A stretch of 35,822 nucleotides of DNA, taken from UHGV virus genome UHGV-1355336; one strand, 5' to 3'. Positions 1 through 31,960 of this stretch are shown here, piece after piece. Made by a program: the position numbers and the translations under genes. The notes below the pieces were generated by a model that was not told the origin of the DNA, searched no databases, and saw only the letters and a program-made list of their open reading frames with translations. Origin of the DNA: a virus. Within the stretch, counting starts at the first letter, position 1. The number at the start of each line of letters is the position of its first letter.

Positions 1-2
1 GG

Positions 3-386
3 CGTAAGGTTTACGCCCGTTTTCTGGATGCGGTGAACTTCGTCAACGGAAACAGTGACGCCGATCCGGAGCAGGAGGTGATCAGCCGCTGGCGCATTGA
101 GCAGTGCAGCGAACTGAGCGCGGTGAGTGCCTCTTTTGTACTGTCCACGCCGACGGAAACGGACGGCGCTGTTTTTCCGGGACGTATCATGCTGGCCAAC
201 ACCTGCACCTGGACCTATCGCGGCGATGAGTGCGGTTATCACGGTCCGGCGGTCGCGGATGAATATGACCAGCCAACGTCCGATATCACGAAGGATAAAT
301 GCAGCAAATGCCTGAGTGGCTGTAAGTTTCGCAATAACGTCGGCAACTTTGGCGGCTTCCTTTCCATTAACAAACTTTCGCAGTAA
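3..386 (+). CDS. L: Minor tail protein L, C-terminal part (gene starts upstream of window)
   Basis: Translation ...KVYARFLDAVNFVNGNSDADPEQEVISRWRIEQ...CSKCLSGCKFRNNVGNFGGFLSINKLSQ matches the recalled lambda gpL C-terminus; reading frame is open to the window edge. Confidence 0.85.
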   Translation, partial: RKVYARFLDAVNFVNGNSDADPEQEVISRWRIEQCSELSAVSASFVLSTPTETDGAVFPGRIMLANTCTWTYRGDECGYHGPAVADEYDQPTSDITKDKCSKCLSGCKFRNNVGNFGGFLSINKLSQ

Positions 387-391
387 ATCCC

Positions 392-1135
392 ATGACACAG
401 ACAGAATCAGCGATTCTGGCGCACGCCCGGCGATGTGCGCCAGCGGAGTCGTGCGGCTTCGTGGTAAGCACGCCGGAGGGGGAAAGATATTTCCCCTGCG
501 TGAATATCTCCGGTGAGCCGGAGGCGTATTTCCGTATGTCGCCGGAGGACTGGCTGCAGGCAGAAATGCAGGGTGAGATTGTGGCACTGGTCCACAGCCA
601 CCCCGGTGGTCTGCCCTGGCTGAGTGAGGCCGACCGGCGGCTGCAGGTGCAGAGTGATTTGCCGTGGTGGCTGGTCTGCCGGGGGACGATTCATAAGTTC
701 CGCTGTGTGCCGCATCTCACCGGGCGGCGCTTTGAGCACGGGGTGACGGACTGTTACACGCTGTTCCGGGATGCTTATCATCTGGCGGGGATTGAGATAC
801 CGGATTTTCATCGCGAGGATGACTGGTGGCGTCACGGTCAGAATCTCTATCTGGATAATCTGGAGGCCACAGGGCTGTATCAGGTGCCGTTGTCATCAGC
901 ACAATCGGGCGATGTGCTGCTGTGTTGTTTTGGTTCATCGGTGCCGAATCATGCTGCCATTTACTGTGGTGACGGCGAGCTGCTGCACCATATTCCTGAA
1001 CAACTGAGTAAACGAGAGAGGTATACCGACAAATGGCAGCGACGCACACACTCCCTCTGGCGTCACCGGGCATGGCGCGCATCTGCCTTTACGGGGATTT
1101 GCAACGATTTGGCCGCCGCATCGACCTTCGTGTGA
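392..1135 (+). CDS. K: Tail tip assembly protein K (JAB/MPN plus NlpC/P60-like)
   Basis: ATG at 392; MTQTESAILAHARRCAPAESCGFVVST... with HSHPGG (JAMM-like) motif; matches recalled lambda gpK; overlaps I as in lambda. Confidence 0.85.
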   Translation: MTQTESAILAHARRCAPAESCGFVVSTPEGERYFPCVNISGEPEAYFRMSPEDWLQAEMQGEIVALVHSHPGGLPWLSEADRRLQVQSDLPWWLVCRGTIHKFRCVPHLTGRRFEHGVTDCYTLFRDAYHLAGIEIPDFHREDDWWRHGQNLYLDNLEATGLYQVPLSSAQSGDVLLCCFGSSVPNHAAIYCGDGELLHHIPEQLSKRERYTDKWQRRTHSLWRHRAWRASAFTGICNDLAAASTFV

Positions 1136-1704
1136 AAACGGGGGCTGAAGCTATCCGCGCACTGGCCACACAGCTCCCGGTGTTTCGTCAGAAACTGAGC
1201 GACGGCTGGTATCAGGTACGGATTGCCGGGCGGGACGTCAGCACGTCCGGGTTAACGGCGCAGTTACATGAGACTCTGCCTGATGGCGCTGTGATTCATA
1301 TTGTTCCCAGAGTCGCCGGGGCCAAGTCAGGTGGCGTATTCCAGATTGTTCTGGGGGCTGCCGCCATTGCCGGATCATTCTTTACTGCCGGAGCCACCCT
1401 TGCAGCATGGGGGGCAGCCATTGGGGCCGGTGGTATGACCGGTATCCTGTTTTCTCTCGGTGCCAGTATGGTACTTGGTGGTGTGGCGCAGATGCTGGCA
1501 CCGAAAGCCAGAACTCCCCGTACACAGACAACGGATAACGGTAAGCAGAACACCTATTTCTCCTCACTGGATAACATGGTTGCCCAGGGCAATGTTCTGC
1601 CTGTTCTGTACGGTGAAATGCGCGTGGGGTCACGGGTGGTTTCTCAGGAGATCAGCACGGCAGACGAAGGGGATGGTGGTCAGGTTGTGGTGATTGGTCG
1701 CTGA
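1033..1704 (+). CDS. I: Tail assembly protein I
   Basis: 223 aa, MAATHTLPLASPGMARICLYGDLQRFGRRIDLRVKTG..., Gly/Ala-rich hydrophobic C-terminal half; same length and sequence character as lambda gpI. Confidence 0.85.
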   Translation: MAATHTLPLASPGMARICLYGDLQRFGRRIDLRVKTGAEAIRALATQLPVFRQKLSDGWYQVRIAGRDVSTSGLTAQLHETLPDGAVIHIVPRVAGAKSGGVFQIVLGAAAIAGSFFTAGATLAAWGAAIGAGGMTGILFSLGASMVLGGVAQMLAPKARTPRTQTTDNGKQNTYFSSLDNMVAQGNVLPVLYGEMRVGSRVVSQEISTADEGDGGQVVVIGR

Positions 1705-1722
1705 TGCAAAACATTTTATGTG

Positions 1723-1750
1723 AAACCGCCTGCGGGCGGTTTTGTCGTTT
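1723..1750 (+). terminator. Stem-loop between I and J (AAACCGCC-loop-GGCGGTTT then U-rich); possible attenuator or RNA structure
   Basis: Inverted repeat read directly in the 60-nt I-J spacer; U-tract is interrupted (TTGTCGTTT). Confidence 0.3.
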
Positions 1751-1764
1751 ATGGAGCGTGACGA

Positions 1765-4700
1765 ATGGGTAAAGGCAGCAGTAAGGGGCATACCCCGCGC
1801 GAAGCGAAGGACAACCTGAAATCCACGCAGTTGCTGAGTGTGATTGATGCCATCAGTGAAGGGCCGATTGAAGGTCCGGTGGATGGATTAAAAAGCGTGC
1901 TGCTGAACAGTACGCCGGTGCTGGACAGTGAGGGGAATACCAACATCGCCGGTGTCACGGTGGTGTTCCGGGCTGGTGAGCAGGAGCAGACTCCGCCGGA
2001 GGGATTTGAATCCTCCGGCTCCGAGACGGTGCTGGGTACGGAAGTGAAATACGACACGCCGATCACCCGCACCATCACGTCGGCAAACATCGACCGACTG
2101 CGCTTTACCTTCGGTGTGCAGGCACTGGTGGAAACCACCTCAAAGGGGGACCGGAATCCGTCGGAAGTTCGCCTGCTGGTTCAGATACAGCGTAATGGTG
2201 GCTGGGTGACGGAAAAAGACATCACCATTAAGGGCAAAACCACCTCGCAGTATCTGGCCTCGGTGGTGGTGGATAACCTGCCGCCGCGCCCGTTTAATAT
2301 CCGGATGCGCAGGATGACGCCGGACAGCACCACAGACCAGCTGCAGAACAAAACGCTCTGGTCGTCATACACCGAAATCATCGATGTGAAACAGTGCTAC
2401 CCGAACACGGCACTGGTCGGCGTGCAGGTGGACTCGGAGCAGTTCGGCAGCCAGCAGGTGAGCCGTAATTATCATCTTCGCGGGCGCATTCTGCAGGTGC
2501 CGTCGAACTATAACCCGCAGACGCGGCAATACAGTGGTATCTGGGACGGAACGTTAAAACCGGCATACAGCAACAACATGGCCTGGTGTCTGTGGGATAT
2601 GCTGACCCATCCGCGCTACGGCATGGGGAAACGTCTTGGTGCGGCGGATGTGGACAAATGGGCGCTGTATGTCATCGGCCAGCATTGCGATCAGTCGGTG
2701 CCGGACGGTTTTGGCGGCACGGAGCCGCGCATCACCTGTAATGCGTACCTGACCACACAGCGCAAGGCGTGGGATGTGCTCAGTGATTTCTGCTCGGCGA
2801 TGCGCTGTATGCCGGTATGGAACGGGCAGACGCTGACGTTCGTGCAGGACCGACCGTCGGATAAGGTGTGGACCTATAACCGCAGTAATGTGGTGATGCC
2901 GGATGATGGTGCGCCGTTCCGCTACAGCTTCAGCGCCCTGAAGGACCGCCATAATGCCGTTGAGGTGAACTGGATTGACCCGAATAACGGCTGGGAGACG
3001 GCGACAGAGCTTGTGGAGGACACGCAGGCCATTGCCCGTTACGGTCGTAACGTCACGAAGATGGATGCTTTTGGCTGTACCAGCCGGGGGCAGGCACACC
3101 GCGCCGGGCTGTGGCTGATTAAAACAGAACTGCTGGAAACGCAGACCGTGGACTTCAGCGTGGGTGCCGAAGGGCTTCGCCATGTACCGGGCGATGTCAT
3201 TGAAATCTGCGATGATGACTATGCCGGTATCCGCACCGGCGGGCGCGTGCTGGCGGTAAACAGCCAGACCCGGACGCTGACGCTCGACCGTGAAATCACG
3301 CTGCCATCTTCCGGCACCACGCTGATAAGCCTGGTTGACGGGCAGGGGAGTCCGGTCAGCGTGGAGGTTCAGTCCGTCACCGACGGCGTGAAGGTGAAAG
3401 TGAGCCGTGTTCCTGACGGCGTTGCTGAATACAGCGTATGGGGGCTGAAGCTGCCGACGTTGCGCCAGCGCCTGTTCCGCTGCGTGAGTATCCGTGAGAA
3501 CGACGACGGCACGTATGCCATCACCGCCGTGCAGCATGTACCGGAAAAAGAGGCCATCGTGGATAACGGGGCGCACTTTGACGGCGACCAGAGCGGCACG
3601 GTAAATGGTGTCACGCCGCCAGCGGTGCAGCACCTGACCGCAGAAGTCACCGCAGACAGCGGGGAATACCAGGTGCTGGCCCGCTGGGACACGCCGAAGG
3701 TGGTGAAGGGCGTGAGCTTCCTGCTTCGCCTGACCGTGGCAGCGGATGACGGCCGTGAGCGGCTGGTCAGCACGGCCCGGACGACGGAAACCACTTACCG
3801 CTTCACACAACTGGCGCTGGGGAACTACAGGCTGACAGTCCGGGCAGTAAATGCGTGGGGGCAGCAGGGCGATCCGGCGTCGGTATCGTTCCGGATTGCC
3901 GCACCGGCAGCGCCGTCGCGGATTGAGCTGACGCCGGGCTATTTTCAGATAACCGCCACGCCGCATCTTGCGGTTTATGACCCGACGGTACAGTTTGAGT
4001 TCTGGTTCTCGGAAAAACGGATTGCGGATATCAGGCAGGTTGAAACCACAGCCCGCTATCTTGGCACGGCGCTGTACTGGATAGCCGCCAGTATCAATAT
4101 CAAACCGGGCCATGATTATTATTTTTACGTTCGCAGTGTGAACACCGTTGGCAAATCGGCATTCGTGGAGGCTGTCGGTCAGCCGAGTGATGATGCATCA
4201 GGCTATCTGGATTTTTTCAAAGGCGAGATAGGGAAAACCCATCTGGCTCAGGAGCTGTGGACGCAGATTGATAACGGTCAGCTTGCGCCTGACCTGGCTG
4301 AAATCAGGACGTCCATTACGGATGTCAGCAATGAAATCACGCAGACCGTCAATAAGAAACTGGAAGACCAGAGTGCTGCAATTCAGCAGATACAGAAGGT
4401 TCAGGTTGATACAAATAATAACCTGAACAGCATGTGGGCTGTGAAGCTGCAGCAGATGCAGGACGGACGCCTTTATATCGCGGGTATTGGTGCCGGTATT
4501 GAGAACACCCCTGACGGCATGCAGAGTCAGGTGCTGCTGGCGGCGGACAGGATTGCGATGGTTAATCCTGCGAATGGCAACACAAAACCGATGTTTGTTG
4601 GTCAGGGCGATCAGATATTCATGAACGACGTGTTCCTGAAACGCCTGACGGCTCCCACCATTACCAGCGGTGGAAATCCGCCGGCATTTTCCCTGACACC

Positions 4701-5247
4701 AGACGGAAAGCTGACCGCTAAAAATGCGGATATCAGCGGTAATGTGAATGCAAATTCAGGGACGCTCAACAATGTCACGATTAATGAAAACTGTCAGATT
4801 AAGGGGAAACTGTCAGCCAATCAGATTGAAGGCGATATTGTCAAAACGGTCAGCAAGTCTTTCCCCCGCACGAACAGTTATGCCAGTGGCACCATCACGG
4901 TAAGAATCAGTGATGATCAGAAATTTGACCGGCAGGTCATGATACCGCCAGTGTTATTCCGCGGTGGTAAGCATGAGAATTTCAACAGTAATAACCAACA
5001 GTCATACTGGTATTCAACCTGCCGGTTAAGAGTGACCCGCAATGGTCAGGAGATTTTTAATCAGTCCACGACGGATGCTCAGGGCGTATTTTCCTCAGTT
5101 ATAGATATGCCTGCCGGACAGGGGACGCTGACACTGACATTCACCGTATCTTCATCAGGAGCGAATAACTGGACACCAACAACCAGTATCAGCGATCTGC
5201 TGGTTGTGGTGATGAAAAAATCCACAGCAGGTATCAGTATCAGCTGA
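1765..5247 (+). CDS. J: Tail tip host-specificity protein J (central tail fibre)
   Basis: 1160 aa; N-terminus [54 protein letters not shown] is lambda-J-like; fibronectin-like central repeats; C-terminal ~250 aa diverge from recalled lambda J. Confidence 0.9.
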
Positions 5248-5264
5248 ATTTTATAACCCAGAAC

Positions 5265-5290
5265 GGGCGTCAGAAATGACGCCTTTTTTA
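5265..5290 (+). terminator. Rho-independent terminator after J
   Basis: GGCGTCA-GAAA-TGACGCC hairpin followed by TTTTTT, 18 nt after the J stop. Confidence 0.6.
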
Positions 5291-5313
5291 TTGCAGAAAA
5301 GCGAGAGGTAATT

Positions 5314-5913
5314 ATGCGTAAACTTTATGCCGCCATTTTGTCCGCAGCCATTTGTCTGGCCGTATCCGGTGCGCCTGCATGGGCGTCTGAACATCAGTCC
5401 ACGCTGAGCGCGGGGTATCTTCATGCCCGGACGAACGTTCCCGGCAGTGATGATCTGAACGGGATTAACGTGAAATACCGTTATGAGTTTACGGACACAC
5501 TGGGGATGGTGACGTCGTTCAGCTATGCAGGAGACAAGAATCGCCAGATTACCCGTTACAGCGATACCCGCTGGCATGAAGATTCCGTTCGTAACCGCTG
5601 GTTCAGCGTAATGGCGGGGCCGTCTGTGCGCGTGAATGAATGGTTCAGCGCGTATGCGATGGCGGGTGTGGCTTACAGCCGTGTGTCGACTTTCTCCGGG
5701 GATTATCTCCGCGTAACTGACAACAAGGGGAAAAAGCACGATGTGCTGACCGGAAGTGATGACGGTCGCCACAGCAACACGTCTCTGGCGTGGGGAGCTG
5801 GCGTGCAGTTTAACCCGACCGAATCCGTGGCCATTGATGTCGCTTATGAAGGCTCCGGCAGTGGTGACTGGCGCACTGACGGGTTCATCGTGGGTGTTGG
5901 TTATAAATTCTGA
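5314..5913 (+). CDS. lom: Lom outer-membrane protein (Ail/Lom/OmpX family)
   Basis: 199 aa, signal peptide [24 protein letters not shown], beta-barrel pattern ending ...FIVGVGYKF; canonical position after J. Confidence 0.9.
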
Positions 5914-5939
5914 TTAGCCAGGTAACACAGTGTTATGAC

Positions 5940-5967
5940 AGCCCGCCGGTTCAGGCGGGCTTTTTTG
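5940..5967 (+). terminator. Rho-independent terminator after lom
   Basis: GCCCGCC-GGTTCA-GGCGGGC hairpin followed by TTTTTT. Confidence 0.65.
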
Positions 5968-5977
5968 TGGGGTGAAT

Positions 5978-8900
5978 ATGGCAGTAAAAATTTCAGGTGT
6001 ACTGAAAGACGGCACAGGAAAACCGGTACAGAACTGCACAATCCAGCTGAAAGCAAAACGTAACAGTACCACGGTGGTGGTGAACACGCTGGCATCTGAA
6101 AATCCGGATGAAGCCGGGCGTTACAGTATGGACGTTGAGTACGGTCAGTACAGCGTTATTCTGTTGGTGGAAGGATTCCCGCCGTCACATGCCGGGACCA
6201 TCACCGTGTATGAAGACTCACAACCGGGTACGCTGAATGATTTTCTCGGTGCCATGACGGAGGATGATGCCCGTCCGGAGGCACTGCGCCGTTTTGAGCT
6301 GATGGTGGAAGAGGTGGCGCGTAACGCGTCCGTGGTGGCACAGAACACGGCAGCCGCGAAGAAGTCAGCCAGCGATGCCGGCACATCAGCCCGTGAGGCG
6401 GCAACCCATGCGACTGATGCTGCAGGCTCAGCAAGCGCAGCCAGCACGTCAGCCGGACAGGCCGCGTCGTCGGCTCAGTCAGCATCTTCCAGCGCAGGAA
6501 CGGCATCAACAAAGGCCAGTGAAGCATCGAAAAGTGCTGCTGCTGCAGAGTCCTCAAAAAGCGCGGCAGCTACCAGTGCCGCTGCGGCGAAAACGTCAGA
6601 AACGAATGCGGCAGCGTCACAACAATCAGCAGCCACTTCTGCATCCGCCGCGACCACGAAGGCGTCAGAAGCAGCCACCTCAGCCCGGGATGCGGCGGCC
6701 TCAAAAGAGGCAGCGAAATCATCAGAAACGAACGCATCCTCGAGCGCCAGTAGTGCCGCTTCCTCGGCAACGGCGGCAGGCAATTCCGCGAAGGCGGCAA
6801 AGACGTCTGAGACAAACGCCAGGTCTTCTGAAACGGCAGCGGAACAGAGTGCCTCAGCTGCGGCAGGCTCAAAAACAGCGGCTGCGTCGTCTGCCAGTGC
6901 AGCGTCAACAAGTGCCGGGCAGGCCTCAGCCAGTGCTAGCGCCGCCGGAAAATCGGCAGAAAGCGCCGCATCGTCCGCTTCAACAGCCACAACGAAGGCT
7001 GGCGAAGCCACTGAACAGGCCAGCGCAGCAGCGAGGTCTGCTTCCGCAGCGAAGACATCCGAGACGAACGCGAAAGCGTCGGAAACCAGCGCAGAATCCT
7101 CAAAAACGGCTGCCGCATCGTCCGCCAGTTCGGCGGCGTCATCGGCATCATCTGCGTCTGCTTCAAAAGATGAGGCGACCAGACAGGCATCAGCAGCGAA
7201 AGGCAGCGCCACGACGGCATCCACGAAGGCGACAGAGGCAGCTGGTAGTGCGACGGCGGCAGCTCAGAGCAAAAGTACGGCGGAATCCGCGGCAACGCGC
7301 GCCGAGACAGCAGCAAAACGGGCAGAGGATATTGCATCCGCCGTGGCGCTTGAGGATGCAAGTACGACGAAAAAGGGGATAGTACAGCTCAGCAGTGCGA
7401 CCAACAGTACGTCTGAAACGCTGGCGGCAACGCCAAAGGCAGTAAAATCAGCCTATGACAATGCAGAGAAACGTCTGCAGAAAGACCAGAACGGCGCTGA
7501 TATACCCGATAAGGGACGCTTCCTGAACAACATTAACGCGGTCAGTAAAACAGACTTTGCTGATAAGCGTGGTATGCGTTATGTGCGGGTTAACGCTCCT
7601 GCAGGTGCAACATCTGGAAAATATTACCCTGTTGTTGTTATGCGTTCTGCTGGCTCAGTAAGCGAACTGGCATCAAGGGTCATTATCACCACGGCAACGC
7701 GAACCGCAGGCGATCCGATGAATAACTGCGAGTTTAACGGATTTGTTATGCCTGGTGGCTGGACTGACAGGGGGCGTTATGCTTATGGCATGTTCTGGCA
7801 ATATCAAAACAATGAACGAGCCATCCACTCAATAATGATGAGTAATAAGGGCGATGATTTGCGCTCTGTGTTCTATGTTGATGGCGCTGCTTTCCCTGTT
7901 TTTGCGTTTATCGAAGATGGCCTGTCAATATCCGCACCTGGTGCTGATCTCGTTGTTAATGATACGACCTATAAGTTTGGGGCAACAAATCCGGCGACTG
8001 AATGTATCGCGGCGGACGTTATCCTTGATTTTAAGAGTGGGCGTGGTTTTTATGAGTCTCATTCGTTAATCGTTAACGATAACTTGTCGTGCAAAAAACT
8101 TTTTGCCACAGACGAAATTGTAGCGCGTGGTGGTAATCAGATTCGAATGATAGGTGGGGAGTATGGGGCATTATGGCGTAATGATGGCGCTAAAACTTAC
8201 CTGCTGCTTACCAATCAAGGTGATGTTTATGGTGGATGGAATACATTAAGACCGTTTGCTATTGATAACGCAACCGGCGAACTGGTTATTGGAACCAAGC
8301 TGTCTGCAAGTCTGAACGGTAACGCATTGACAGCAACAAAGCTGCAAACGCCAAGACGGGTTTCTGGTGTTGAGTTTGATGGTTCCAGAGATATTACTTT
8401 AACCGCCGCGCATGTGGCTGCTTTTGCCAGAAGGGCAACGGATACGTATGCCGATGCGGATGGGGGCGTTCCATGGAATGCCGAATCAGGCGCTTACAAT
8501 GTCACCCGCTCTGGCGACAGCTATATTCTGGTTAACTTCTATACCGGAGTCGGAAGTTGCCGGACCTTGCAGATGAAGGCACATTACAGAAATGGAGGTC
8601 TGTTCTACCGTTCCTCAAGAGATGGCTATGGTTTTGAGGAAGACTGGGCAGAAGTTTATACCTCGAAAAATCTTCCACCAGAAAGCTACCCAGTCGGCGC
8701 ACCAATCCCGTGGCCATCAGATACCGTTCCGTCTGGTTATGCCCTGATGCAGGGGCAGACTTTTGACAAATCTGCTTACCCGAAACTTGCAGTTGCTTAT
8801 CCGTCAGGCGTGATCCCTGATATGCGTGGCTGGACGATTAAGGGCAAGCCCGCCAGTGGTCGTGCCGTATTGTCTCAGGAACAGGACGGCATTAAATCGC

Positions 8901-9328
8901 ACACCCACAGCGCCAGCGCATCCAGTACGGATTTGGGGACGAAAACCACATCGTCGTTTGATTACGGCACTAAATCCACGAATAACACTGGTGCGCATAC
9001 CCATAGTGTTAGCGGTACGGCTGCTTCAGCCGGTGCACATACCCATTCGATGACATTTGTTTCAGGTGGTTCCAGTGGTGCTCCGGGAAGTGGATCACCT
9101 GATTATTCTAAATACAGTGTTAACACTTCTTCTGCAGGCGCTCATACGCACTCTGTATCGGGTACTGCTGCAAGCGCAGGTGCACACGCACATACTGTCG
9201 GTATTGGTGCTCATACGCACTCCGTTGCGATTGGTTCACATGGACATACCATCACCGTTAACGCTGCTGGTAACGCGGAAAACACCGTCAAAAACATCGC
9301 ATTTAACTATATTGTGAGGCTTGCATAA
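5978..9328 (+). CDS. stf: Side tail fibre protein (Stf/StfR-like) with Ala/Ser-rich repeat rod and His-rich C-terminal domain
   Basis: ATG at 5978 gives [27 protein letters not shown]... (lambda Stf-like N-terminus); ~330 aa of low-complexity A/S/T repeats with recurring KTSETNA units; C-terminus has repeated GAHTHS / HxH motifs. Confidence 0.85.
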
Positions 9329-9912
9329 TGGCATTCAGAATGAGTGAACAACCACGGACCATAAAAATTTATAATCTGCTGGCCGGAACTAATGAATTTA
9401 TTGGTGAAGGTGACGCATATATTCCGCCTCATACAGGTCTGCCAGCAAACAGTACCGATATTGCACCGCCAGATATTCCGGCAGGCTTCGTGGCTGTTTT
9501 CAACAGTGATGAGGCATCGTGGCATCTCGTTGAAGATCATCGGGGTAAAACGGTTTATGACGTGGCTTCCGGCGACGCGTTATTTATTTCTGAACTCGGT
9601 CCGTTACCGGAAAATGCCACTTGGTTATCCCCGGAAGGGGAGTTTCAGAAGTGGAACGGCACAGCCTGGGTGAAAGATGCAGAAGCAGAAAAACTATTCC
9701 GGATCCGGGAGGCGGAAGAAACAAAAAACAGCCTGATGCAGGCAGCGAATGAGCATATTGCGCCACTTCAGGATGCTGTAGATCTGGAAATCGCAACGGA
9801 GGAAGAAACCTTGTTGCTGGAAGCCTGGAAAAAGTATCGGGTGTTGCTGAACCGTGTTGATACATCAACTGCACCTGATATTGAGTGGCCTACGAACCCT
9901 GTCAGGGAGTAA
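9328..9912 (+). CDS. tfa: Tail fibre assembly chaperone Tfa
   Basis: 194 aa, start overlaps stf stop (TAATG); [54 protein letters not shown]... is typical Tfa. Confidence 0.85.
9751..9867 (+). repeat. Direct repeat copy 1 (3' part of tfa); copy 2 lies in the downstream tfa fragment
   Basis: [30 protein letters not shown] coding stretch recurs near-identically at ~10800-10913. Confidence 0.6.
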
Positions 9913-14287: not shown

Positions 14288-15451
14288 TTACGCCTTCTTT
14301 ATATCCTCCATAATTCCACAGTGGGACATATTTGGGACATTATCACCAAAAATGTCGTCTATTTTCCTTGCATGCTCTGTCAAATGATTAGGCGCAAGGT
14401 GAGCATACCTACGAACCATTTCTATGGACTCCCATCCGCCCATTTCCTGAAGCACAGATAATGGGACGCCTGACTGGATCAGCCAGCTTGCCCAGGTGTG
14501 TCTGAGGTCATGGAAACGGAAATCTTCAATTCCTGCACGACGACAAGCTGATAGCCATGATGTCTTGCTGTCGATGCGCATCTTCCTGACCGCAGGCGTT
14601 GATGTTCCATCTGCTCGCTTAGCCGCCTTGGTATGTACAAACACCCATTTGTGATGCTTGCCTATTTGATCACGCAACACTTTACAGGCGGTATCGTTCA
14701 GCGCCACACCAATGGCGCGGTTTGATTTGCTCTCTTCTGGATTCACCCAGGCAACTCGTCGCTGCATGTCGATTTGTTGCCATTCCAGATTTATGATGTT
14801 CGACTTTCTCAGACCAGTTGCCAGCGCAAACTTGACGACAGATTTCAGTGGTTCGGGGCACTCATCAATAAGGCGTTTTGCTTCCTCCTTTTCCAGCCAT
14901 CTGACTCGCTTGTTTCTGACCGCTGGTATCTTGATGACAGGCGCTTTTTCCAGCCACTTCCAGTCGCGTTCTGCAGCACGGAGAATGGCCTTTATCATGG
15001 CAAGATGCTTTGCCTTTGTCTGAGTTGATACTGGCTTTGGTTCATAAACAGGCGGTTCTTTACCTTTCCTGATGGCGGCCTGAACTTTCTGTTTCCATAT
15101 TTCTTTCGTCTTTCTGTTATGCATTCTGCTTACAGCAGAGTAAATCTTTGCCTCCGAGATATCTTTAAGCCTTATACCCTCAAAATGTTCAAGCCAGAAC
15201 TCAATCCGGCTTTTATCTGAATCGAGAGATTTTTTATCAGCTTTTTCCTCAAGCCATCTTAGGCAGGCCTCTTCAAAAGTGACATCAGGTAAATCCCCTA
15301 GCTTTTCTACTCGCCAGAGTTCTGCTTTTCGCTTGTCGTGCAACTCCTGAGCTTGCCGCTTGTCCTTTGTGCCAAGAGATTCCTTAATTCGTTTCCCGCC
15401 CGGGAGCGAATACGAGGCATACCATATTTCATTTCTGCGGAAGAGTGACAT
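14288..15451 (-). CDS. int: Tyrosine integrase (IntD/DLP12-like, P4-integrase family)
   Basis: 387 aa; [35 protein letters not shown]...; C-terminal catalytic R..HDLRHT..Y region; adjacent to tRNA-derived att core. Confidence 0.9.
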
Positions 15452-25899: not shown

Positions 25900-26897
25900 A
25901 TGAATAATCTGATGGTCATTGATGGTATTGAAGTTCGTCGTGATGCTTATGGGCGTTACAGCCTGAACGATCTGCATCGNNNNNNNNNNNNNNNNNNNNN
26001 NNNNNNNNNNNNNNNNNNNNNNNNNNNNNNNNNNNNNNNNNNNNNNNNNNNNNNNNNNNNNNNNNNNNNNNNNNNNNNNGTATTGAAGTTCGTCGTGATG
26101 CTTATGGGCGTTACAGCCTGAACGATCTGCATCGGGCTGCTGTTGTATTTGGTGCAAATGCCAGAACTAAGGAGCCGGGAAAGTTTCTTTCCAGCCAACA
26201 GATTACTGAGCTGGTTCAGGAATTGATCGATACCCAAAATTTGGGTGTCGGTTCATTCAATGAAACTACCCAAAATTTGGGTAGTAAACCAGTAAGTAAA
26301 ATAGAAGGGCGGAATGGAGGAACGTATGTCTGCAAGGAACTGGTGTATGCCTATGCAATGTGGATCAGCCCGTCATTCCATCTGAAGGTGATCCGTACTT
26401 TCGATATGGTAACCAGCACACCGGAAAAATTATCCGGGCAGGCTGCTGACAAGATGCAGGCTGGCGTGATCCTGCTGGACTTTATGCGCCGGGAATTAAA
26501 CCTGTCTAAGTCATCAGTGCTTGGAGCCTGTCAGAAGCTTCAGGAGGCTGTTGGCTTACCGAATCTGGCACCGCGCTATGCCATTGATGCTCCTGCTGAC
26601 GCGCCTGATGGCTCAAGTCGCCCCACGCTGTCGCTGAGTGCACTGCTGAAACAGTATGGTATCCGCCTGACGGCTAATCAGGCATATCACCAGATGGTGA
26701 AGCTGGGGATCGTTGAACAACGCGAACGATACAGCCGTACCGCGATTAACAACATCAAAAAATTCTGGTCGCTGACGGCGAAAGGCTGCATGTTCGGCAA
26801 GAACATCACCAGTCCTGCAAATCCGCGCGAGACGCAGCCGCATTTCTTCGAATCCCGATTCCCTGAGCTGTTAAAGCTGCTCGATACCGTTCATTGA
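25900..26897 (+). CDS. KilA-N domain protein (antirepressor/Roi-like), interrupted by an assembly gap
   Basis: MNNLMVIDGIEVRRDAYGRYSLNDLHRAA... (KilA-N-like); frame continues past the N-run to 26897; flanks of the gap duplicate the same ~55 nt. Confidence 0.55.
25980..26079. other. Assembly gap (100 N) flanked by duplicated sequence
   Basis: Run of N; GTATTGAAGTTCGTCGTGATGCTTATGGGCGTTACAGCCTGAACGATCTGCATCG occurs both just before and just after the gap. Confidence 0.95.
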
Positions 26898-27907: not shown

Positions 27908-28660
27908 ATGAACCTTGAAGCCTTACCAAAATATTACTCCCCAAAATCTCCAAAATTGAGCGATGACGCACCGGCGACAGGCTCAGGTGGTTTAACGATT
28001 ACGGATGTGATGGCTGCGCAGGGGATGGTGCAGTCGAAAGCACCGCTTGGGTTTGCCTTATTCCTGGCAAAAGTTGGTGTTCAGGATCCTCAGTTTGCGA
28101 TTGAAGGTCTGCTCAATTACGCGATGGCAATGGATAACCCGACATTGAACAAATTGAGTGAAGAAACCCGGTTACAGATCATCCCTTACCTTGTGAGTTT
28201 TGCCTTTGCTGATTATTCCAGGTCTGCGGCAAGTAAGGCTCGCTGTGAGCATTGTGCTGGTACTGGATTTCATAGTGTATTGCGCGAAGTGGTGAAACAC
28301 TCCAGAAGCGGGGAATCTGTTATCAAGGAAGAGTGGGTGAAGGAATTATGTCAGCATTGCCATGGTAAGGGAGAAGTCAGCACGGCTTGCAGAGGGTGTA
28401 AGGGTAAAGGCATTGTCCTGGATGAAAAAAGAACCCGGCTTCATGGCGCGCCTGTTTATAAGATTTGTGGGCGTTGCAATGGAAACCGGTTTAGTCGTTT
28501 ACCGACCACACTGGCACGACGTCATGTCCAGAAGCTGGTACCAGACCTGACTGATTATCAGTGGTACAAAGGATATGCAGACGTCATTGATAAACTGGTA
28601 ACAAAGTGCTGGCAGGAAGAAGCATTCGCTGAAGCACAATTGAGAAAGGTGACGAGATAA
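27908..28660 (+). CDS. Q: Late-gene antiterminator Q (QuuQ-type, 250 aa)
   Basis: Cys-rich zinc-binding region (CEHCAGTG...CQHCHGKG...CRGCKGKG...CGRCNG); followed by promoter-like sequence and an intrinsic terminator. Confidence 0.75.
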   Translation: MNLEALPKYYSPKSPKLSDDAPATGSGGLTITDVMAAQGMVQSKAPLGFALFLAKVGVQDPQFAIEGLLNYAMAMDNPTLNKLSEETRLQIIPYLVSFAFADYSRSAASKARCEHCAGTGFHSVLREVVKHSRSGESVIKEEWVKELCQHCHGKGEVSTACRGCKGKGIVLDEKRTRLHGAPVYKICGRCNGNRFSRLPTTLARRHVQKLVPDLTDYQWYKGYADVIDKLVTKCWQEEAFAEAQLRKVTR

Positions 28661-28691
28661 GTGATTTTCACCGAAGATGGCGACATGATGC

Positions 28692-28720
28692 TTGCATTTC
28701 TCAAAAAATATGGATAAGAT
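28692..28720 (+). promoter_or_regulatory. Candidate late promoter pR' (TTGCAT-17-TAAGAT)
   Basis: Sigma-70-like hexamers with 17-nt spacer ~30 nt after the Q stop and ~45 nt before a terminator. Confidence 0.4.
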
Positions 28721-28765
28721 TTTCCCAACGATGGGCTTTGTATGTCTACCGTTGATGAGTCCAAG

Positions 28766-28797
28766 AACCCGCCGCCGAGCGGGTTAAATTATTTTTT
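28766..28797 (+). terminator. Candidate tR' intrinsic terminator
   Basis: AACCCGC-CGCCGA-GCGGGTT hairpin followed by AAATTATTTTTTCTT. Confidence 0.6.
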
Positions 28798-28814
28798 CTT
28801 ACACGGGGATATGG

Positions 28815-29345
28815 ATGTTATACCGAGATCTTTTGCCTATTTTCTCAGAAAGACCCATATTTAAAGCTCCTGAGGCTGAAAGAATACTTCGTGAGCAATA
28901 TTCTATCGCCGCCCCCACTCCTGTAATTCAGGAGATTTATTATGGATTGGCAGGTTATGACAGATTTCAGGAGCTTTATGGGGATCTTAATATTGACCAA
29001 ATCGAATGGAAATTGATTGAACTTCCCACTAAAAATTTTTTAACTATCGGGGATAATGCTACTTACCCTGATTTTTTGCATGAGGTCGTTGAAGATTTCA
29101 CAACCCGTAAAGGCGATGTATTTATGGATGATGAAATAAAAGCGCATTGGTGTAATTTTGGCACATGGTGTGAACCTCCATTTTTTATAGATCGAGCTTT
29201 GCTGAAAAGTAATACAACAGGGCTTCATTTAATGGAAGGGCATACAAGAGTTGGAACCCTGTTAGGGGCAGTTAAGTATAACTTCGTTAAGCTTGCTAAT
29301 ACTCATAAAATTTATTATGCGCAAGCAAAAGAATGTATTAAATAA
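28815..29345 (+). CDS. Unknown-function protein (176 aa) in the Q-S cargo position
   Basis: ATG preceded by GGGGAT; AT-rich compared with flanking phage genes; followed by its own terminator; contains LMEGHTRVGTLLGA, weakly reminiscent of ParB/Srx DGHHR motifs. Confidence 0.5.
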   Translation: MLYRDLLPIFSERPIFKAPEAERILREQYSIAAPTPVIQEIYYGLAGYDRFQELYGDLNIDQIEWKLIELPTKNFLTIGDNATYPDFLHEVVEDFTTRKGDVFMDDEIKAHWCNFGTWCEPPFFIDRALLKSNTTGLHLMEGHTRVGTLLGAVKYNFVKLANTHKIYYAQAKECIK

Positions 29346-29381
29346 GTTGAGTGAAATTACTGTTTTTTTTTAACAATACTT

Positions 29382-29404
29382 ACCGCGTTCTCGCGGTTTT
29401 TTTA
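29382..29404 (+). terminator. Rho-independent terminator after the 176-aa ORF
   Basis: ACCGCG-TTCT-CGCGGT followed by TTTTTTT. Confidence 0.6.
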
Positions 29405-29526
29405 TAAATTAAACATTGGTGCAGTACGGTAAACACGCTGGTGGTCGTGAATACTGACTTTTTATCTTGCTGGCTTTTTAGACAAGAGTTATTGGTATGT
29501 CATGTTAACCATGAAGGTAAAAAGAC

Positions 29527-29721
29527 ATGCTAAAACAGCAAGATATGACAGAAACGGCGAAAGTTGTTTTTAATGAATTAAACGGCAAACCGGCAACAGT
29601 CGGGGAGATAGCACAAAACACATACCTTTCACGCGAACGCTGTCAGTTAATACTGACCCAGCTGGTTATGGCGGGGCTGGCAGATTACCAGTTCGGCTGT
29701 TACAGACGCCTTCAGCAATGA
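29527..29721 (+). CDS. Small hypothetical protein (64 aa), possible winged-helix DNA binder
   Basis: MLKQQDMTETAKVVFNELNGKPATVGEIAQNTYLSRERCQLILTQLVMAGLADYQF; weak RBS; call is tentative. Confidence 0.35.
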   Translation: MLKQQDMTETAKVVFNELNGKPATVGEIAQNTYLSRERCQLILTQLVMAGLADYQFGCYRRLQQ

Positions 29722-29870: not shown

Positions 29871-30932
29871 ATGAAAAACACTGTAAAAATAAACAGTATT
29901 GATTTAATCAACGCTGATTGCCTGCATTTTATTCAGTCCCTGCCTGATGATTCCATTGACCTGATTGTTACCGATCCGCCTTACTTCAAGGTGAAACCCA
30001 ACGGTTGGGACAATCAGTGGAAAGGGGACGAAGATTACCTTAAGTGGCTGGACCACTGTCTGGCCCAGTTCTGGCAGGTGTTGAAACCTGCCGGAAGCCT
30101 TTACCTGTTCTGTGGGCATCGCCTGGCATCTGATATTGAGATCATGATGCGTGAACGTTTCAACGTGCTTAACCATATCATCTGGGCGAAGCCGTCCGGA
30201 CGTTGGAATGGGTGTAATAAAGAAAGTCTGCGCGCATATTTTCCTGCCACAGAGCGCGTTCTGTTTGCTGAACATTACCGGGGGCCATATCGCGGCAAAA
30301 GTGACGGCTATGTGGCAAAAGAAAGGGAACTCAAACAGCACATAATGGCACCGCTGATATCGTATTTCAGGGATGCTCGTGCCGAACTGGGTATAACGGC
30401 AAAACAAATTGCCGAAGCCACAGGTAAGAAAAATATGGTTTCCCACTGGTTTGGTGCCAGTCAGTGGCAGTTGCCGAATGAGGCTGACTACCGGAAGTTA
30501 CAGGCACTGTTTTCCCGTATAGCGGCAGAGAAGTTTCAGGAACAACAACTGGAACAACCACACCACCAGTTGGTGGCATCTTATGATTCACTGAATCGCA
30601 AATATTCTGAATTGCTGGATGAGTTTAAATCTCTCCGGCGCTATTTCTCCGTATCAGTCTCCGTGCCTTATACCGATGTCTGGATGCATAAACCCGTTCA
30701 GTTCTACCCGGGTAAACATCCGTGTGAGAAACCGGCGGATATGCTCAGGCAAATAATCAATGCCAGTAGTCGACCCGGCGATCTGGTTGCTGATTTCTTT
30801 ATGGGATCCGGTTCCACAATAAAAGCAGCAATGGCGCTGGGGCGTCGGGCGTTAGGTGTTGAGCTTGAGACAGAGCGGTTTAATCAGACCATCCAGGAAA
30901 TCAGTATGTTATCAGCAAATACAATTTTGTGA
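29871..30932 (+). CDS. DNA methyltransferase, beta-class (motif IV DPPY before motif I FxGxG); likely N6-adenine, orphan
   Basis: VTDPPYF near the N-terminus and DFFMGSGST near the C-terminus; no adjacent restriction endonuclease candidate. Confidence 0.8.
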   Translation: MKNTVKINSIDLINADCLHFIQSLPDDSIDLIVTDPPYFKVKPNGWDNQWKGDEDYLKWLDHCLAQFWQVLKPAGSLYLFCGHRLASDIEIMMRERFNVLNHIIWAKPSGRWNGCNKESLRAYFPATERVLFAEHYRGPYRGKSDGYVAKERELKQHIMAPLISYFRDARAELGITAKQIAEATGKKNMVSHWFGASQWQLPNEADYRKLQALFSRIAAEKFQEQQLEQPHHQLVASYDSLNRKYSELLDEFKSLRRYFSVSVSVPYTDVWMHKPVQFYPGKHPCEKPADMLRQIINASSRPGDLVADFFMGSGSTIKAAMALGRRALGVELETERFNQTIQEISMLSANTIL

Positions 30933-31214: not shown

Positions 31215-31503
31215 CAACGAATCCTTCTGATCTGCTTTTGCGGGGCTTTTTTGTATCCGCTCCATGCCCGGCGTATAAGCGGAGGTTGGTCAGTTTTCTA
31301 AAAATTGAAATACCTCACAATTCAGCCAGTTAATGGTTGTTTGTCTGGCGAAGAGTTTGTAAATAAAAAAACGCATGGTGAATCCCCCTAAGCGGCGGGG
31401 CGAATCAGCAGTCAGTTCTGGGATAATCGCGGGTTCGTATGCTGATGCCGGACTCACCGGGAGGCACCCGGCACCATGCATCATGGTCATCCCCTTGTAT
31501 GAT

Positions 31504-31529
31504 ACCCCTCTCCGGAGGGGTATTTTTTG
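31504..31529 (+). terminator. Intrinsic terminator (ACCCCTC-TCCG-GAGGGGT then ATTTTTT)
   Basis: Read directly in ORF-poor DNA upstream of the holin. Confidence 0.6.
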
Positions 31530-31960
31530 GATAAAAAAGCCCGCGCTGGGAGGCACGGGCGGCAAGGAATAAAACGTGAAGAAATTTTCACAGGCGCATA
31601 ATAATCCGATGTTGCCAGATTTTGCAACTGCATCATCTGGTTATTATGTGAGCTGGAAAATCAGATTCTGTATGGACTGAAGCCATGCTGTTATTTAGGG
31701 CCAAAGAGCTGGCTTTTTCCCGCCTTCTCTCCAGTAACGATTAATGAGAAAAGAATGAAATGCTTTTCCTGGGGAGGAGGGCAGTAGAAAAAAGAACCCG
31801 CCAGCAAAAATATGGGGGATGAACAGCTTTTGCTACTCAGGTTGCTGGCGGGTATGGTTCTTCATGAAATAAGAATGTTACGCGGTATTTTTAATGAAAA
31901 TGATAATTATTGTCAATTGGTTGTGCGTATTTTTTCATACATGACTGGTAAAGGTGATTC

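Follow-up and report, generated by a model that had tools for sequence, protein, structure and literature searches.

The closest described counterparts of the gene studied here are of two kinds. One is the cargo that lambdoid phages carry in the late operon behind the antiterminator gene Q, above all the stx2AB genes of Shiga toxin (Stx) phages. In those phages the late promoter pR' is always active and its transcript is terminated during lysogeny, as PMC7547250 describes, and in the late operon of phi80 the co-oriented genes are produced only with Q present (PMC11364771). The other kind is the ParB/sulfiredoxin (ParB/Srx) proteins, ranging from the CTP-binding domains of ParB-type systems and sulfiredoxin itself to the DUF262/GmrS modules, the plasmid pSa fertility-inhibition protein Osa, and the DdrB-like solo ParB domains, the last of which were predicted to be nucleoside triphosphate (NTP)-regulated DNases or NTP sensors in conflicts (Iyer et al. 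2017, PMC5512222). Here, we describe a gene that bears on both: an open reading frame (ORF) for 176 amino acids (aa) that lies directly behind Q in the UHGV virus genome UHGV-1355336, of which we analyzed one strand of 35,822 nucleotides (the window, meaning this whole stretch). Its product is a new family, unrecognized by sequence, within a known superfamily and in a known type of cargo position.

Like stx2AB and a lipoprotein cargo of related phages, the cassette that carries this gene has the same Q/pR'/tR' backbone and late-operon orientation and is dispensable and exchangeable. The products differ, those of the known cargo being a secreted toxin and a lipoprotein, whereas the 176-aa product is predicted to be cytoplasmic and enzyme-like. 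On the protein side, it can be likened to Osa (4ovb), as a small, stand-alone ParB/Srx protein of mobile elements. Unlike the ParB-type CTP-binding domains of PadC (6ryk), pNOB8 (5k5d), KorB (8qa8), and Spo0J (1vz0), it has no helix-turn-helix (HTH) or dimerization domain; no ParA or bactofilin partner was found in any locus of the family, and the Pfam ParBc model (PF02195) does not match. The catalytic cysteine in the signature of sulfiredoxin (6ky4, 1yzs) is replaced by H143/T144. DUF262/GmrS modules such as BrxU (7p9k) and SspE (6jiv) are large, multidomain, and coupled to an HNH/DUF1524 nuclease, whereas the 176-aa protein has a single predicted ParB/Srx domain and lacks the motif set DGQQR, QR, and FxxxN. 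The DdrB-like proteins are likewise solo ParB/Srx domains from prophage late-gene contexts (PMC5512222), but they are encoded beside virion genes, whereas the 176-aa gene stands at the very start of the late operon.

The cassette behind Q

The region around the ORF is made up of the following features, in their order along the window.

27908-28660, plus strand: Q antiterminator gene, 250 aa, lambda-Q-like (PF03589, 1.7e-53; phrog_127; phmmer matches to the lambda Q structures 7ubm and 4mo1)
28692-28720, plus strand: pR'-like late promoter, with -35 TTGCAT (28692-28697), a spacer of 17 nt, and -10 TAAGAT (28715-28720)
28727-28735, plus strand: AACGATGGG, -10-like block located where transcription is predicted to start (~28727), counterpart of the sigma70-dependent pause element of lambda pR'
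28766-28797, plus strand: tR' terminator, a 7-bp hairpin (28766-28785, -11.7 kcal/mol) and then the interrupted U-tract AAATTATTTTTT, from terminator scan and folds
28786 to ~29415 (+/-5), plus strand: inserted accessory (moron) cassette, ~630 bp and 37% GC, delimited by alignments with Ayreon and with the empty slot of SfV
28805-28809, plus strand: Shine-Dalgarno-like GGGGA, 5 nt ahead of the ATG
28815-29345, plus strand: the 176-aa ORF, with its ATG at 28815 and a stop codon ending at 29345 (WP_000966854.1, phrog_8867)
29382-29404, plus strand: intrinsic terminator of the cassette itself, with a GC-rich stem of 6 bp (hairpin 29382-29397) and then T7

The ORF is a real gene under purifying selection. 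A profile search that covered 1.84 billion cluster representatives returned 286 homologue clusters at E<=1e-3, of which 138 also passed E<=1e-10, with lengths mainly of 165-185 aa, and dN/dS was 0.12-0.33 for the unsaturated pairs of the family; the 286 clusters and these ratios rule out a chance reading frame. Close homologues (47-59% identity) occur in Salmonella, Klebsiella, Enterobacter, Citrobacter, Hafnia, and Kluyvera. In a collection of 15 billion proteins, the identical sequence was present on at least 1000 contigs and was labeled hypothetical by every source, so that the first-pass annotation, made from the sequence alone, was right to call the protein unrecognized. No model in Pfam (E<=1), NCBIfam, or PADLOC-DB 2.0.0 (0 families, E<=1) matched it, the PHROGs search returned phrog_8867 alone (function unknown), and phmmer and two profile searches against PDB sequences gave nothing relevant. 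Literature searches yielded no paper on the accession WP_000966854.1 and none joining ParB Srx, phage, and defense. The same annotation had delimited the element as 28692-29404, positions that prove to be the first base of the -35 hexamer and the last T of the terminator behind the ORF, and the AT-rich ORF, promoter, tR', separate terminator, and EGHTR stretch that it listed are all present where it placed them.

Upstream of the ORF, the promoter aligns collinearly with lambda pR' (TTGACT, 17 nt, TAAATT) and is identical in phage Ayreon. A consensus promoter scan did not list it because just 7/12 positions match, which is under the threshold. The CAACGATGGG block is invariant in the window, lambda, and Ayreon and lies 6 nt past the -10 in each. 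In lambda, AACGAT is a -10-like element that causes a sigma70-dependent pause, during which Q loads onto RNA polymerase; we take AACGATGGG to be the equivalent pause and Q-loading element. The collinearity with lambda, the CAACGATGGG block, and the tR' hairpin bear out the initial description of the region as a promoter-plus-terminator pair resembling pR'/tR'. Behind the same hairpin, SfV and Ayreon have an uninterrupted T7, whereas the window has TT-AAATTATTTTTT in its place and, relative to both, lacks the proximal part of the U-tract, an interruption that would be expected to weaken tR'.

The ATG follows the tR' stem at a distance of just 29 nt, too short for a separate cassette promoter, and the promoter scan detected no plus-strand promoter for the cassette. 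With no promoter of its own, the cassette must draw its transcription from pR'. It had been proposed from the start that the gene is induced on Q antitermination. The anatomical half of that proposal fits, both in the 29-nt gap and in the ~50%-identical homologues that stand behind unrelated Q proteins; Q-dependent expression itself, which we infer from this arrangement, is likely.

Two further observations concern Q and the leader. The Q protein is lambda-Q-like in residues 1-120 and 160-250, and its middle part contains CXXCXGXG repeats, a DnaJ-type zinc-finger-like insert (PF00684, 2.8e-07). For the predicted pR'-tR' leader RNA (28727-28797, ~65-70 nt), folding gave a pair of hairpins (-22.4 kcal/mol, z -2.8), and the leader may be a stable small transcript comparable to lambda 6S or to the StxS small RNA (sRNA) of Stx phages, the latter as presented in PMC7547250; Rfam has no family in the leader or in the cassette.

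The borders of the cassette were read from the alignments with Ayreon and SfV. Backbone homology ends at 28785, the last base of the tR' stem, and restarts at ~29416, and because it breaks and resumes at these points, the cassette spans ~630 bp and includes its own terminator. The GC content of the ORF is 0.37 (0.36-0.38 in 300-nt windows), against ~0.50 in the Q and methylase genes. In phage SfV the slot is empty: the same Q, pR', and tR' are followed directly by a 64-aa gene and a methylase gene. Some E. coli genomes also have an empty slot, with 285-288 bp between the flanks, and the slot spans seen in E. coli genomes were 901, 964, and 285-288 bp. Among 5426 complete E. coli genomes, 90 carry the 176-aa cargo (>=99% identity), and 1543 match some part of a 901-bp query (28600-29500).

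At the same point, Ayreon, mEp460, and Stx2c/Stx2k phages carry an unrelated lipoprotein cassette. Its 141-aa product starts MKKVLIAAIGFCLVGCAG, a lipoprotein signal, and has no Pfam match. Because a near-identical tR' terminator (AACCCGCCACTGAGCGGGTTTTTT) flanks this cargo on either side, its structure suggests that cargo is swapped through recombination at terminator repeats. This arrangement was noted at 3156-3199 and 3835-3873 of the Ayreon locus (L002), and the alternative cargo also at 5841-6266 of the locus of phiSTEC1575-Stx2k (L065). For the window, the best explanation of the aligned sequences is that the cassette was acquired horizontally, with the U-tract of tR' in a lambdoid prophage as its insertion point.

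The slot had initially been equated with the one in which Stx phages carry their toxin genes. In an Stx2k phage on the same backbone, stx2AB lies ~2.3 kb further downstream, past winged HTH (wHTH)/HTH genes and tRNAs, and because of this distance stx shares the Q-to-holin interval with the cassette and not its exact insertion point. The equation therefore holds for the interval, in which three states of the slot were seen, and fails for the point of insertion. The cassette is dispensable or replaced in homologous phages and has a distinct composition and its own terminator, as is typical of morons; a promoter of its own for expression from the repressed prophage is missing, judging by the 29-nt gap and the promoter scan. 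We regard it as almost certainly an exchangeable cassette (moron).

The position of the gene was compared across 34 loci of enterobacterial phages or prophages, 28 of them on IMG/VR contigs and the other six on contigs from an exact look-up. A member of the family was the first gene past Q in all of them (34/34), an answer to the survey across prophages that had been suggested at the outset. The E. coli-group loci have a Q of the lambda type (PF03589), and the other 20 have an unrelated type of Q (PF06323), in lineages down to 28-30% mutual identity. Downstream, the gene is followed by holins of five Pfam families or by the wHTH/methylase pair, and the cargo proteins themselves form four subclades at <70% identity. 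The PF06323 loci have a TTGCAA-16/17-(T/C)ATATT-type promoter overlapping the end of Q, a hairpin AAACCCGC...GCGGGTTTTTTG ~25-30 nt before the ATG, and usually a second terminator behind the ORF; terminators equivalent to 29382-29404 follow the homologues in Klebsiella-type and Salmonella loci. A canonical tR' (8-bp or 5-bp stem and T6) stands directly ahead of the gene in four other lineages. The upstream hairpin of the Salmonella lineage is degenerate (-6.9 kcal/mol, z 0.08) and no better than shuffles.

A ParB/Srx-like protein family

A structure prediction of the 176-aa protein by AlphaFold2 (AF2) had a mean confidence (pLDDT) of 93.6. A Foldseek search with a predicted structure, as had been advised in the first-pass annotation, put ParB/Sulfiredoxin proteins on top when run against BFVD, a set of predicted viral structures (probability 0.97 and 0.96, E 5.5e-3). 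Solved structures related to the model, with their scores, were as follows.

6ryk, PadC: 6.3
5k5d, pNOB8 ParB-N: 5.4
6ky4, plant sulfiredoxin: 5.4
1yzs, human sulfiredoxin: 5.1
5ujd, SbnI: 4.8
7p9k, BrxU: 4.2
5x0b, serine kinase SerK: 4.2
8qa8, KorB: 4.0
4ovb, Osa: 3.5

SspE, Spo0J, and Atu1540 came at ranks 11-13. These relatives align over ~56-92 residues, corresponding to the C-terminal part of the protein (residues ~60-176), and its alpha/beta core can be superposed on the solved ParB/Srx members. On the strength of the model, the protein very probably has a ParB/Srx fold. It can be divided into the following parts.

28815-28988, plus strand: N-terminal helical region, residues 1-58, acidic (pI 4.65), from the AF2 model, with P34 invariant and Y55 near-invariant
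28992-29342, plus strand: ParB/Srx-like alpha/beta domain, residues ~60-176, with W65, W112, W118, and R145 invariant
29235-29249, plus strand: codons of EGHTR, residues 141-145, a predicted nucleotide-phosphate-binding or catalytic loop

In the model, the domain begins with a strand (63-71), followed by helices, a strand at 123-126 (PPFFID), a strand at 137-141 (LHLME), a helix at 143-155 (HTRVGTLLGAVKY), and a strand at 163-171. EGHTR thus lies at a strand-to-helix turn, between the strand 137-141 and the helix 143-155. The NTP-phosphate-binding signatures of GmrS (DGQQR) and Srx (FGGCHR) are located at such a strand-to-helix turn, and the EGHTR loop fits, as a match by pattern, the h-[D/G]-G-x-x-R NTP-binding signature described for these two groups (PMC4619093).

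Conservation was assessed from an alignment of 85 diverse members of the family. P34, W65, W112, W118, and R145 are invariant, and Y55, T117, P122, E141, G142, L149, and H164 are at least 90% conserved. Within the loop, E is conserved at 99%, G at 99%, H at 88%, T at 86%, and R at 100%, and essentially all members share the segment h-h-E-G-[H/R]-[T/S]-R-x-G-x-L-x-G. Residues 1-58 have no convincing structural relative, and a Pfam scan of each member gave weak matches in this N-terminal region, to CUE in 7/85 and to DUF1281 in 4/85. Longer members contain no informative domain fusions: their C-terminal extensions have no Pfam match, and their N-terminal extensions look like miscalled starts. 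The 176-aa protein is acidic (pI 5.4) and has no hydrophobic segment (max KD19 0.55), and the best explanation is that it is a cytoplasmic protein of a previously unannotated family.

Beyond enterobacterial phages, loci were retrieved with a 19-sequence alignment of the family. No neighbor gene is conserved among 15 such loci, from Planctomycetota, Gamma- and Betaproteobacteria, Campylobacterota, Actinomycetota, and others; homologues were also found in Accumulibacter, Acidimicrobiia, marine Vibrio, and environmental Planctomycetota. The Vibrio/Photobacterium member is a gene cassette between VCR-like attC repeats of ~130 nt. A V. parahaemolyticus contig (L057, 1-3431; also L058 and L059) encodes a member 38% identical to the window protein, and the V. 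parahaemolyticus superintegron holds the member twice within 3.4 kb, with 5-6 copies of the attC repeat. Immediate neighbors of distant members include a complete type II-A retron (NDT 3.6e-78, RT 3.7e-111), a patatin effector of the type found in cyclic-oligonucleotide-based antiphage signaling systems (CBASS; 3.6e-59), a KAP NTPase matching the candidate system PDC-S49 (3e-21), a HIRAN protein matching PDC-M03B, and a mad8-like NTPase. Distant members directly downstream of defense-type genes were seen at L015 4084-5917, L060 71-1066, L005 4284-5990, and L061 112-600. Transposases, integrases, and ParDE and PemK modules also occur near distant members.

Several more specific identities were considered and rejected. 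A canonical ParB/Spo0J would have an HTH, which was found neither in the model nor by Pfam, and no ParA-type neighbor is linked to the gene. Sulfiredoxin is excluded by the loop, which reads E-G-H-T-R, and by the lack of a conserved Cys in the family alignment, and a toxin of a toxin-antitoxin pair by the lack of a partner gene. The protein is not a DUF262/GmrS member, having no PF03235 match, no PADLOC match, and no nuclease partner. It is also no DdrB-like ParB, as the model has no helix between 143-155 and 163-171 and hhalign against P1 DdrB 1-300 gave E 0.46. Nor does it match any defense system modeled in PADLOC, the PADLOC matches being confined to neighbors of distant homologues.

Neighboring genes and other features of the window

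Downstream of the cassette, the backbone continues with two genes.

29527-29721, plus strand: winged-helix-like gene, 64 aa, phrog_331, backbone and not cassette, 95-100% identical beside all three slot states
29871-30932, plus strand: N6/N4 DNA methyltransferase (PF01555, 1.2e-41; PADLOC MTase_II, 5.5e-150)

The methyltransferase gene likewise belongs to the backbone and not to the cassette, as it is present in Ayreon and SfV, which lack the 176-aa cargo. At 31344-31532 on the plus strand, Rfam gave a strong match to the STnc100 sRNA family (RF02076; 114.5 bits against a gathering threshold of 47, E 5.5e-26), which lies inside the Q-dependent late transcript, in the ~1-kb gene-poor stretch from methylase to holin. 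No tRNAs occur between Q and holin of the window. In another locus (L068, 1390-5567), the second gene downstream of a distant family member encodes a 973-aa protein that contains an N6_N4 methylase domain; PF01555 methylases near the gene in the window, in L049, and in L068 form a weak, unexplained recurrence.

Elsewhere in the window, a run of undetermined bases at ~25950-26050 (X in the translations) interrupts the KilA-N gene region where it begins, and this gene is not fully readable. Long plus-strand ORFs (1160 and 1118 aa) in 1-9912 are presumed to be tail genes, at a guess. A 387-aa ORF at 14288-15451 on the minus strand, which follows ~4 kb of mostly minus-strand ORFs and precedes the early, Q, and lysis genes, may by a similar guess be an integrase. 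If these guesses hold, the stretch would consist of two adjacent phage-derived segments or of a permuted phage genome.

Proposed role, alternatives, and significance

From these observations, we propose the following course of events. With pR' as the sole plausible promoter of the cassette, polymerase that Q has modified at the pause site would pass tR' and continue across the cassette and its terminator, and the 176-aa protein would be made mainly after the commitment of the prophage to lysis. In lysogens, some transcription may slip past the weakened tR', and the lysis genes would be protected from it by the terminator of the cassette. The protein would most likely bind and hydrolyze an NTP at the EGHTR loop, and this NTPase could gate a nuclease or a nucleotide-directed activity in conflicts among phage, host, and rival elements, by analogy with Osa, GmrS/BrxU, and ParB-like nucleases; in analogous domains, NTPase and non-specific nuclease activities may share one site (PMC4619093, PMC5512222). 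A Q-made enzyme that binds or hydrolyzes NTP, possibly an NTP-gated nuclease, for conflict between mobile elements has, on this analogy, about an even chance of being correct. For a function in conflict taken by itself, which we infer from the same comparisons, our confidence falls somewhat short of that.

A number of observations weigh against this proposal. No ParB-type Pfam family appears among the 85 members even at E<=10, and the family profile gave no significant hhalign match to sulfiredoxin, Spo0J, P1 DdrB, or YbdM/IbrB (E 0.29-0.46, and 0.29-0.39 with P1 DdrB set aside), the human sulfiredoxin and B. subtilis Spo0J queries being approximate sequences. The best register placed EGHTR opposite DGFHR of YbdM, at a non-significant E of 0.29; the two sequences (PPifI...LhLVEGHTRv and QPIVV...eIVDGFHRH) align there in the expected register, which is consistency and not proof, and the YbdM/IbrB alignment is of low diversity (Neff ~1.4-1.6) because the homologue search lists close relatives only. 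The weak resemblance to the ParB/Srx motif DGHHR that had first drawn attention to EGHTR thus persists at the level of the fold, where the loop is near-invariant and sits at the strand-to-helix junction, and is not significant in sequence-profile tests. Members of the family tend to be acidic to neutral (median pI 5.9), which is untypical of non-specific DNA-binding nucleases. The neighbors tested with PADLOC had been picked as suggestive, so that they represent an association and not a measured enrichment, and the chromosomal and integron copies are hard to square with a purely late-lytic function. Finally, because tR' is weakened in two lineages, by the interrupted U-tract in the window and by the decayed hairpin in Salmonella, there are hints that expression in the lysogen may matter.

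This last point leads to the main rival explanation, in which the gene is a defense or superinfection-exclusion gene active in the lysogen, expressed by leakage from pR' through the weakened tR', and its product attacks or senses incoming phage DNA. The retron II-A, CBASS-type patatin, PDC-S49, and PDC-M03B neighbors elsewhere in the family and the Vibrio integron cassette would suit such a role, as would the U-tract shortened relative to SfV and Ayreon, the decayed Salmonella hairpin, and a pR' that is always active in lysogens, as stated in PMC7547250. The ORF also lies between two terminators, of which the cassette's own would stop the leak before the lysis genes. However, four other lineages keep a canonical tR' directly before the gene, which has no promoter of its own, unlike classical lysogen-expressed morons, and no PADLOC model matches the protein; in phi80, the defense gene expressed in the lysogen is oriented divergently, and it is the co-oriented late genes that depend on Q (PMC11364771). 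We consider this rival unlikely, and the remaining ones less likely again. A late-made counter-defense or self-protection protein would neutralize host or rival immunity through a nucleotide signal or NTP, or be packaged in the virion for use in the next infection, as proposed for DdrB-like ParB proteins. The Q-linked late expression would repeat the pattern of the phi80 counter-defense gene atiEcA (PMC11364771), and for solo ParB/Srx domains in prophage late contexts, the predicted roles were NTP sensing, NTP degradation, or delivery by injection (PMC5512222). An acidic, soluble protein such as this one would suit the role, but no similarity to P1 DdrB was detectable, and the model is without the additional Tyr-bearing helix by which DdrB-like ParB domains are defined. 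No such cargo is known from lambdoid virions, and the integron and retron-side copies better suit a host-side gene; counter-defense is correspondingly a rather improbable role.

The neighboring methyltransferase raises the question of whether the 176-aa protein is its accessory subunit, one half of a split form of the common fusion of a ParB domain and an N6_N4 methylase, which would help to modify the DNA of the progeny in late infection. One fusion of ParB and methylase is described as having nicking activity (PMC5512222), a PF01555 methylase lies 0.5 kb downstream in the window and is found also in lineage L049, and a large PF01555 protein is encoded near the distant member in L068. Yet SfV and Ayreon have the methylase and the 64-aa gene without the cargo, most Q-linked homologues (Salmonella, Klebsiella-type) run straight into holins with no methylase, and the 15 non-phage loci share no conserved neighbor, which makes this idea very improbable. 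We give still less credence to a virulence factor or toxin that, like Shiga toxin, is freed at lysis and acts on the eukaryotic host. The gene does occupy the same Q-to-holin interval as stx in phages sharing the Q backbone, and the strains that carry it include human and avian clinical isolates. But stx lies at a different insertion point, the protein has no signal peptide or hydrophobic segment (max KD19 0.55) and no toxin domain was found in it, and its homologues come from sources as varied as environmental Planctomycetota, marine Vibrio, Accumulibacter, and Acidimicrobiia.

The proposal of a Q-made enzyme that uses NTP can also be put in a bolder form, which we hold to be improbable as it stands. 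The gene would encode a single-gene immune or counter-immune effector, an NTPase-gated ParB/Srx protein tied to Q in at least eight mosaic lineages, that fires only in cells committed to lysis. The targets that such an effector destroys or starves could be competing prophages, satellites, plasmids, or the genome of the host; alternatively, it could disarm nucleotide-based defense. It would be a module traded in other bacteria as an integron cassette and a defense-island gene.

Whatever its activity, the gene is common: related forms occur in Salmonella, Klebsiella, Enterobacter, and Vibrio, and the E. coli that carry it include bloodstream and avian pathogenic isolates. Its strict position behind two unrelated families of Q is mildly surprising, as are the insertion into a terminator and the occurrence of the same module in integrons and in neighborhoods resembling defense islands. 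Because the gene is always the first behind Q, its position suggests that phages gain from making the protein at the start of late transcription. If the protein is inert or merely structural, the cassette would be an ordinary moron. If it is an NTP-gated nuclease or a nucleotide-directed enzyme, it would be a compact, single-gene member of the ParB/Srx conflict toolkit alongside Osa, GmrS/BrxU/SspE, and the DdrB-like proteins, and the cassette would provide a clean model of antitermination-gated cargo other than Shiga toxin.

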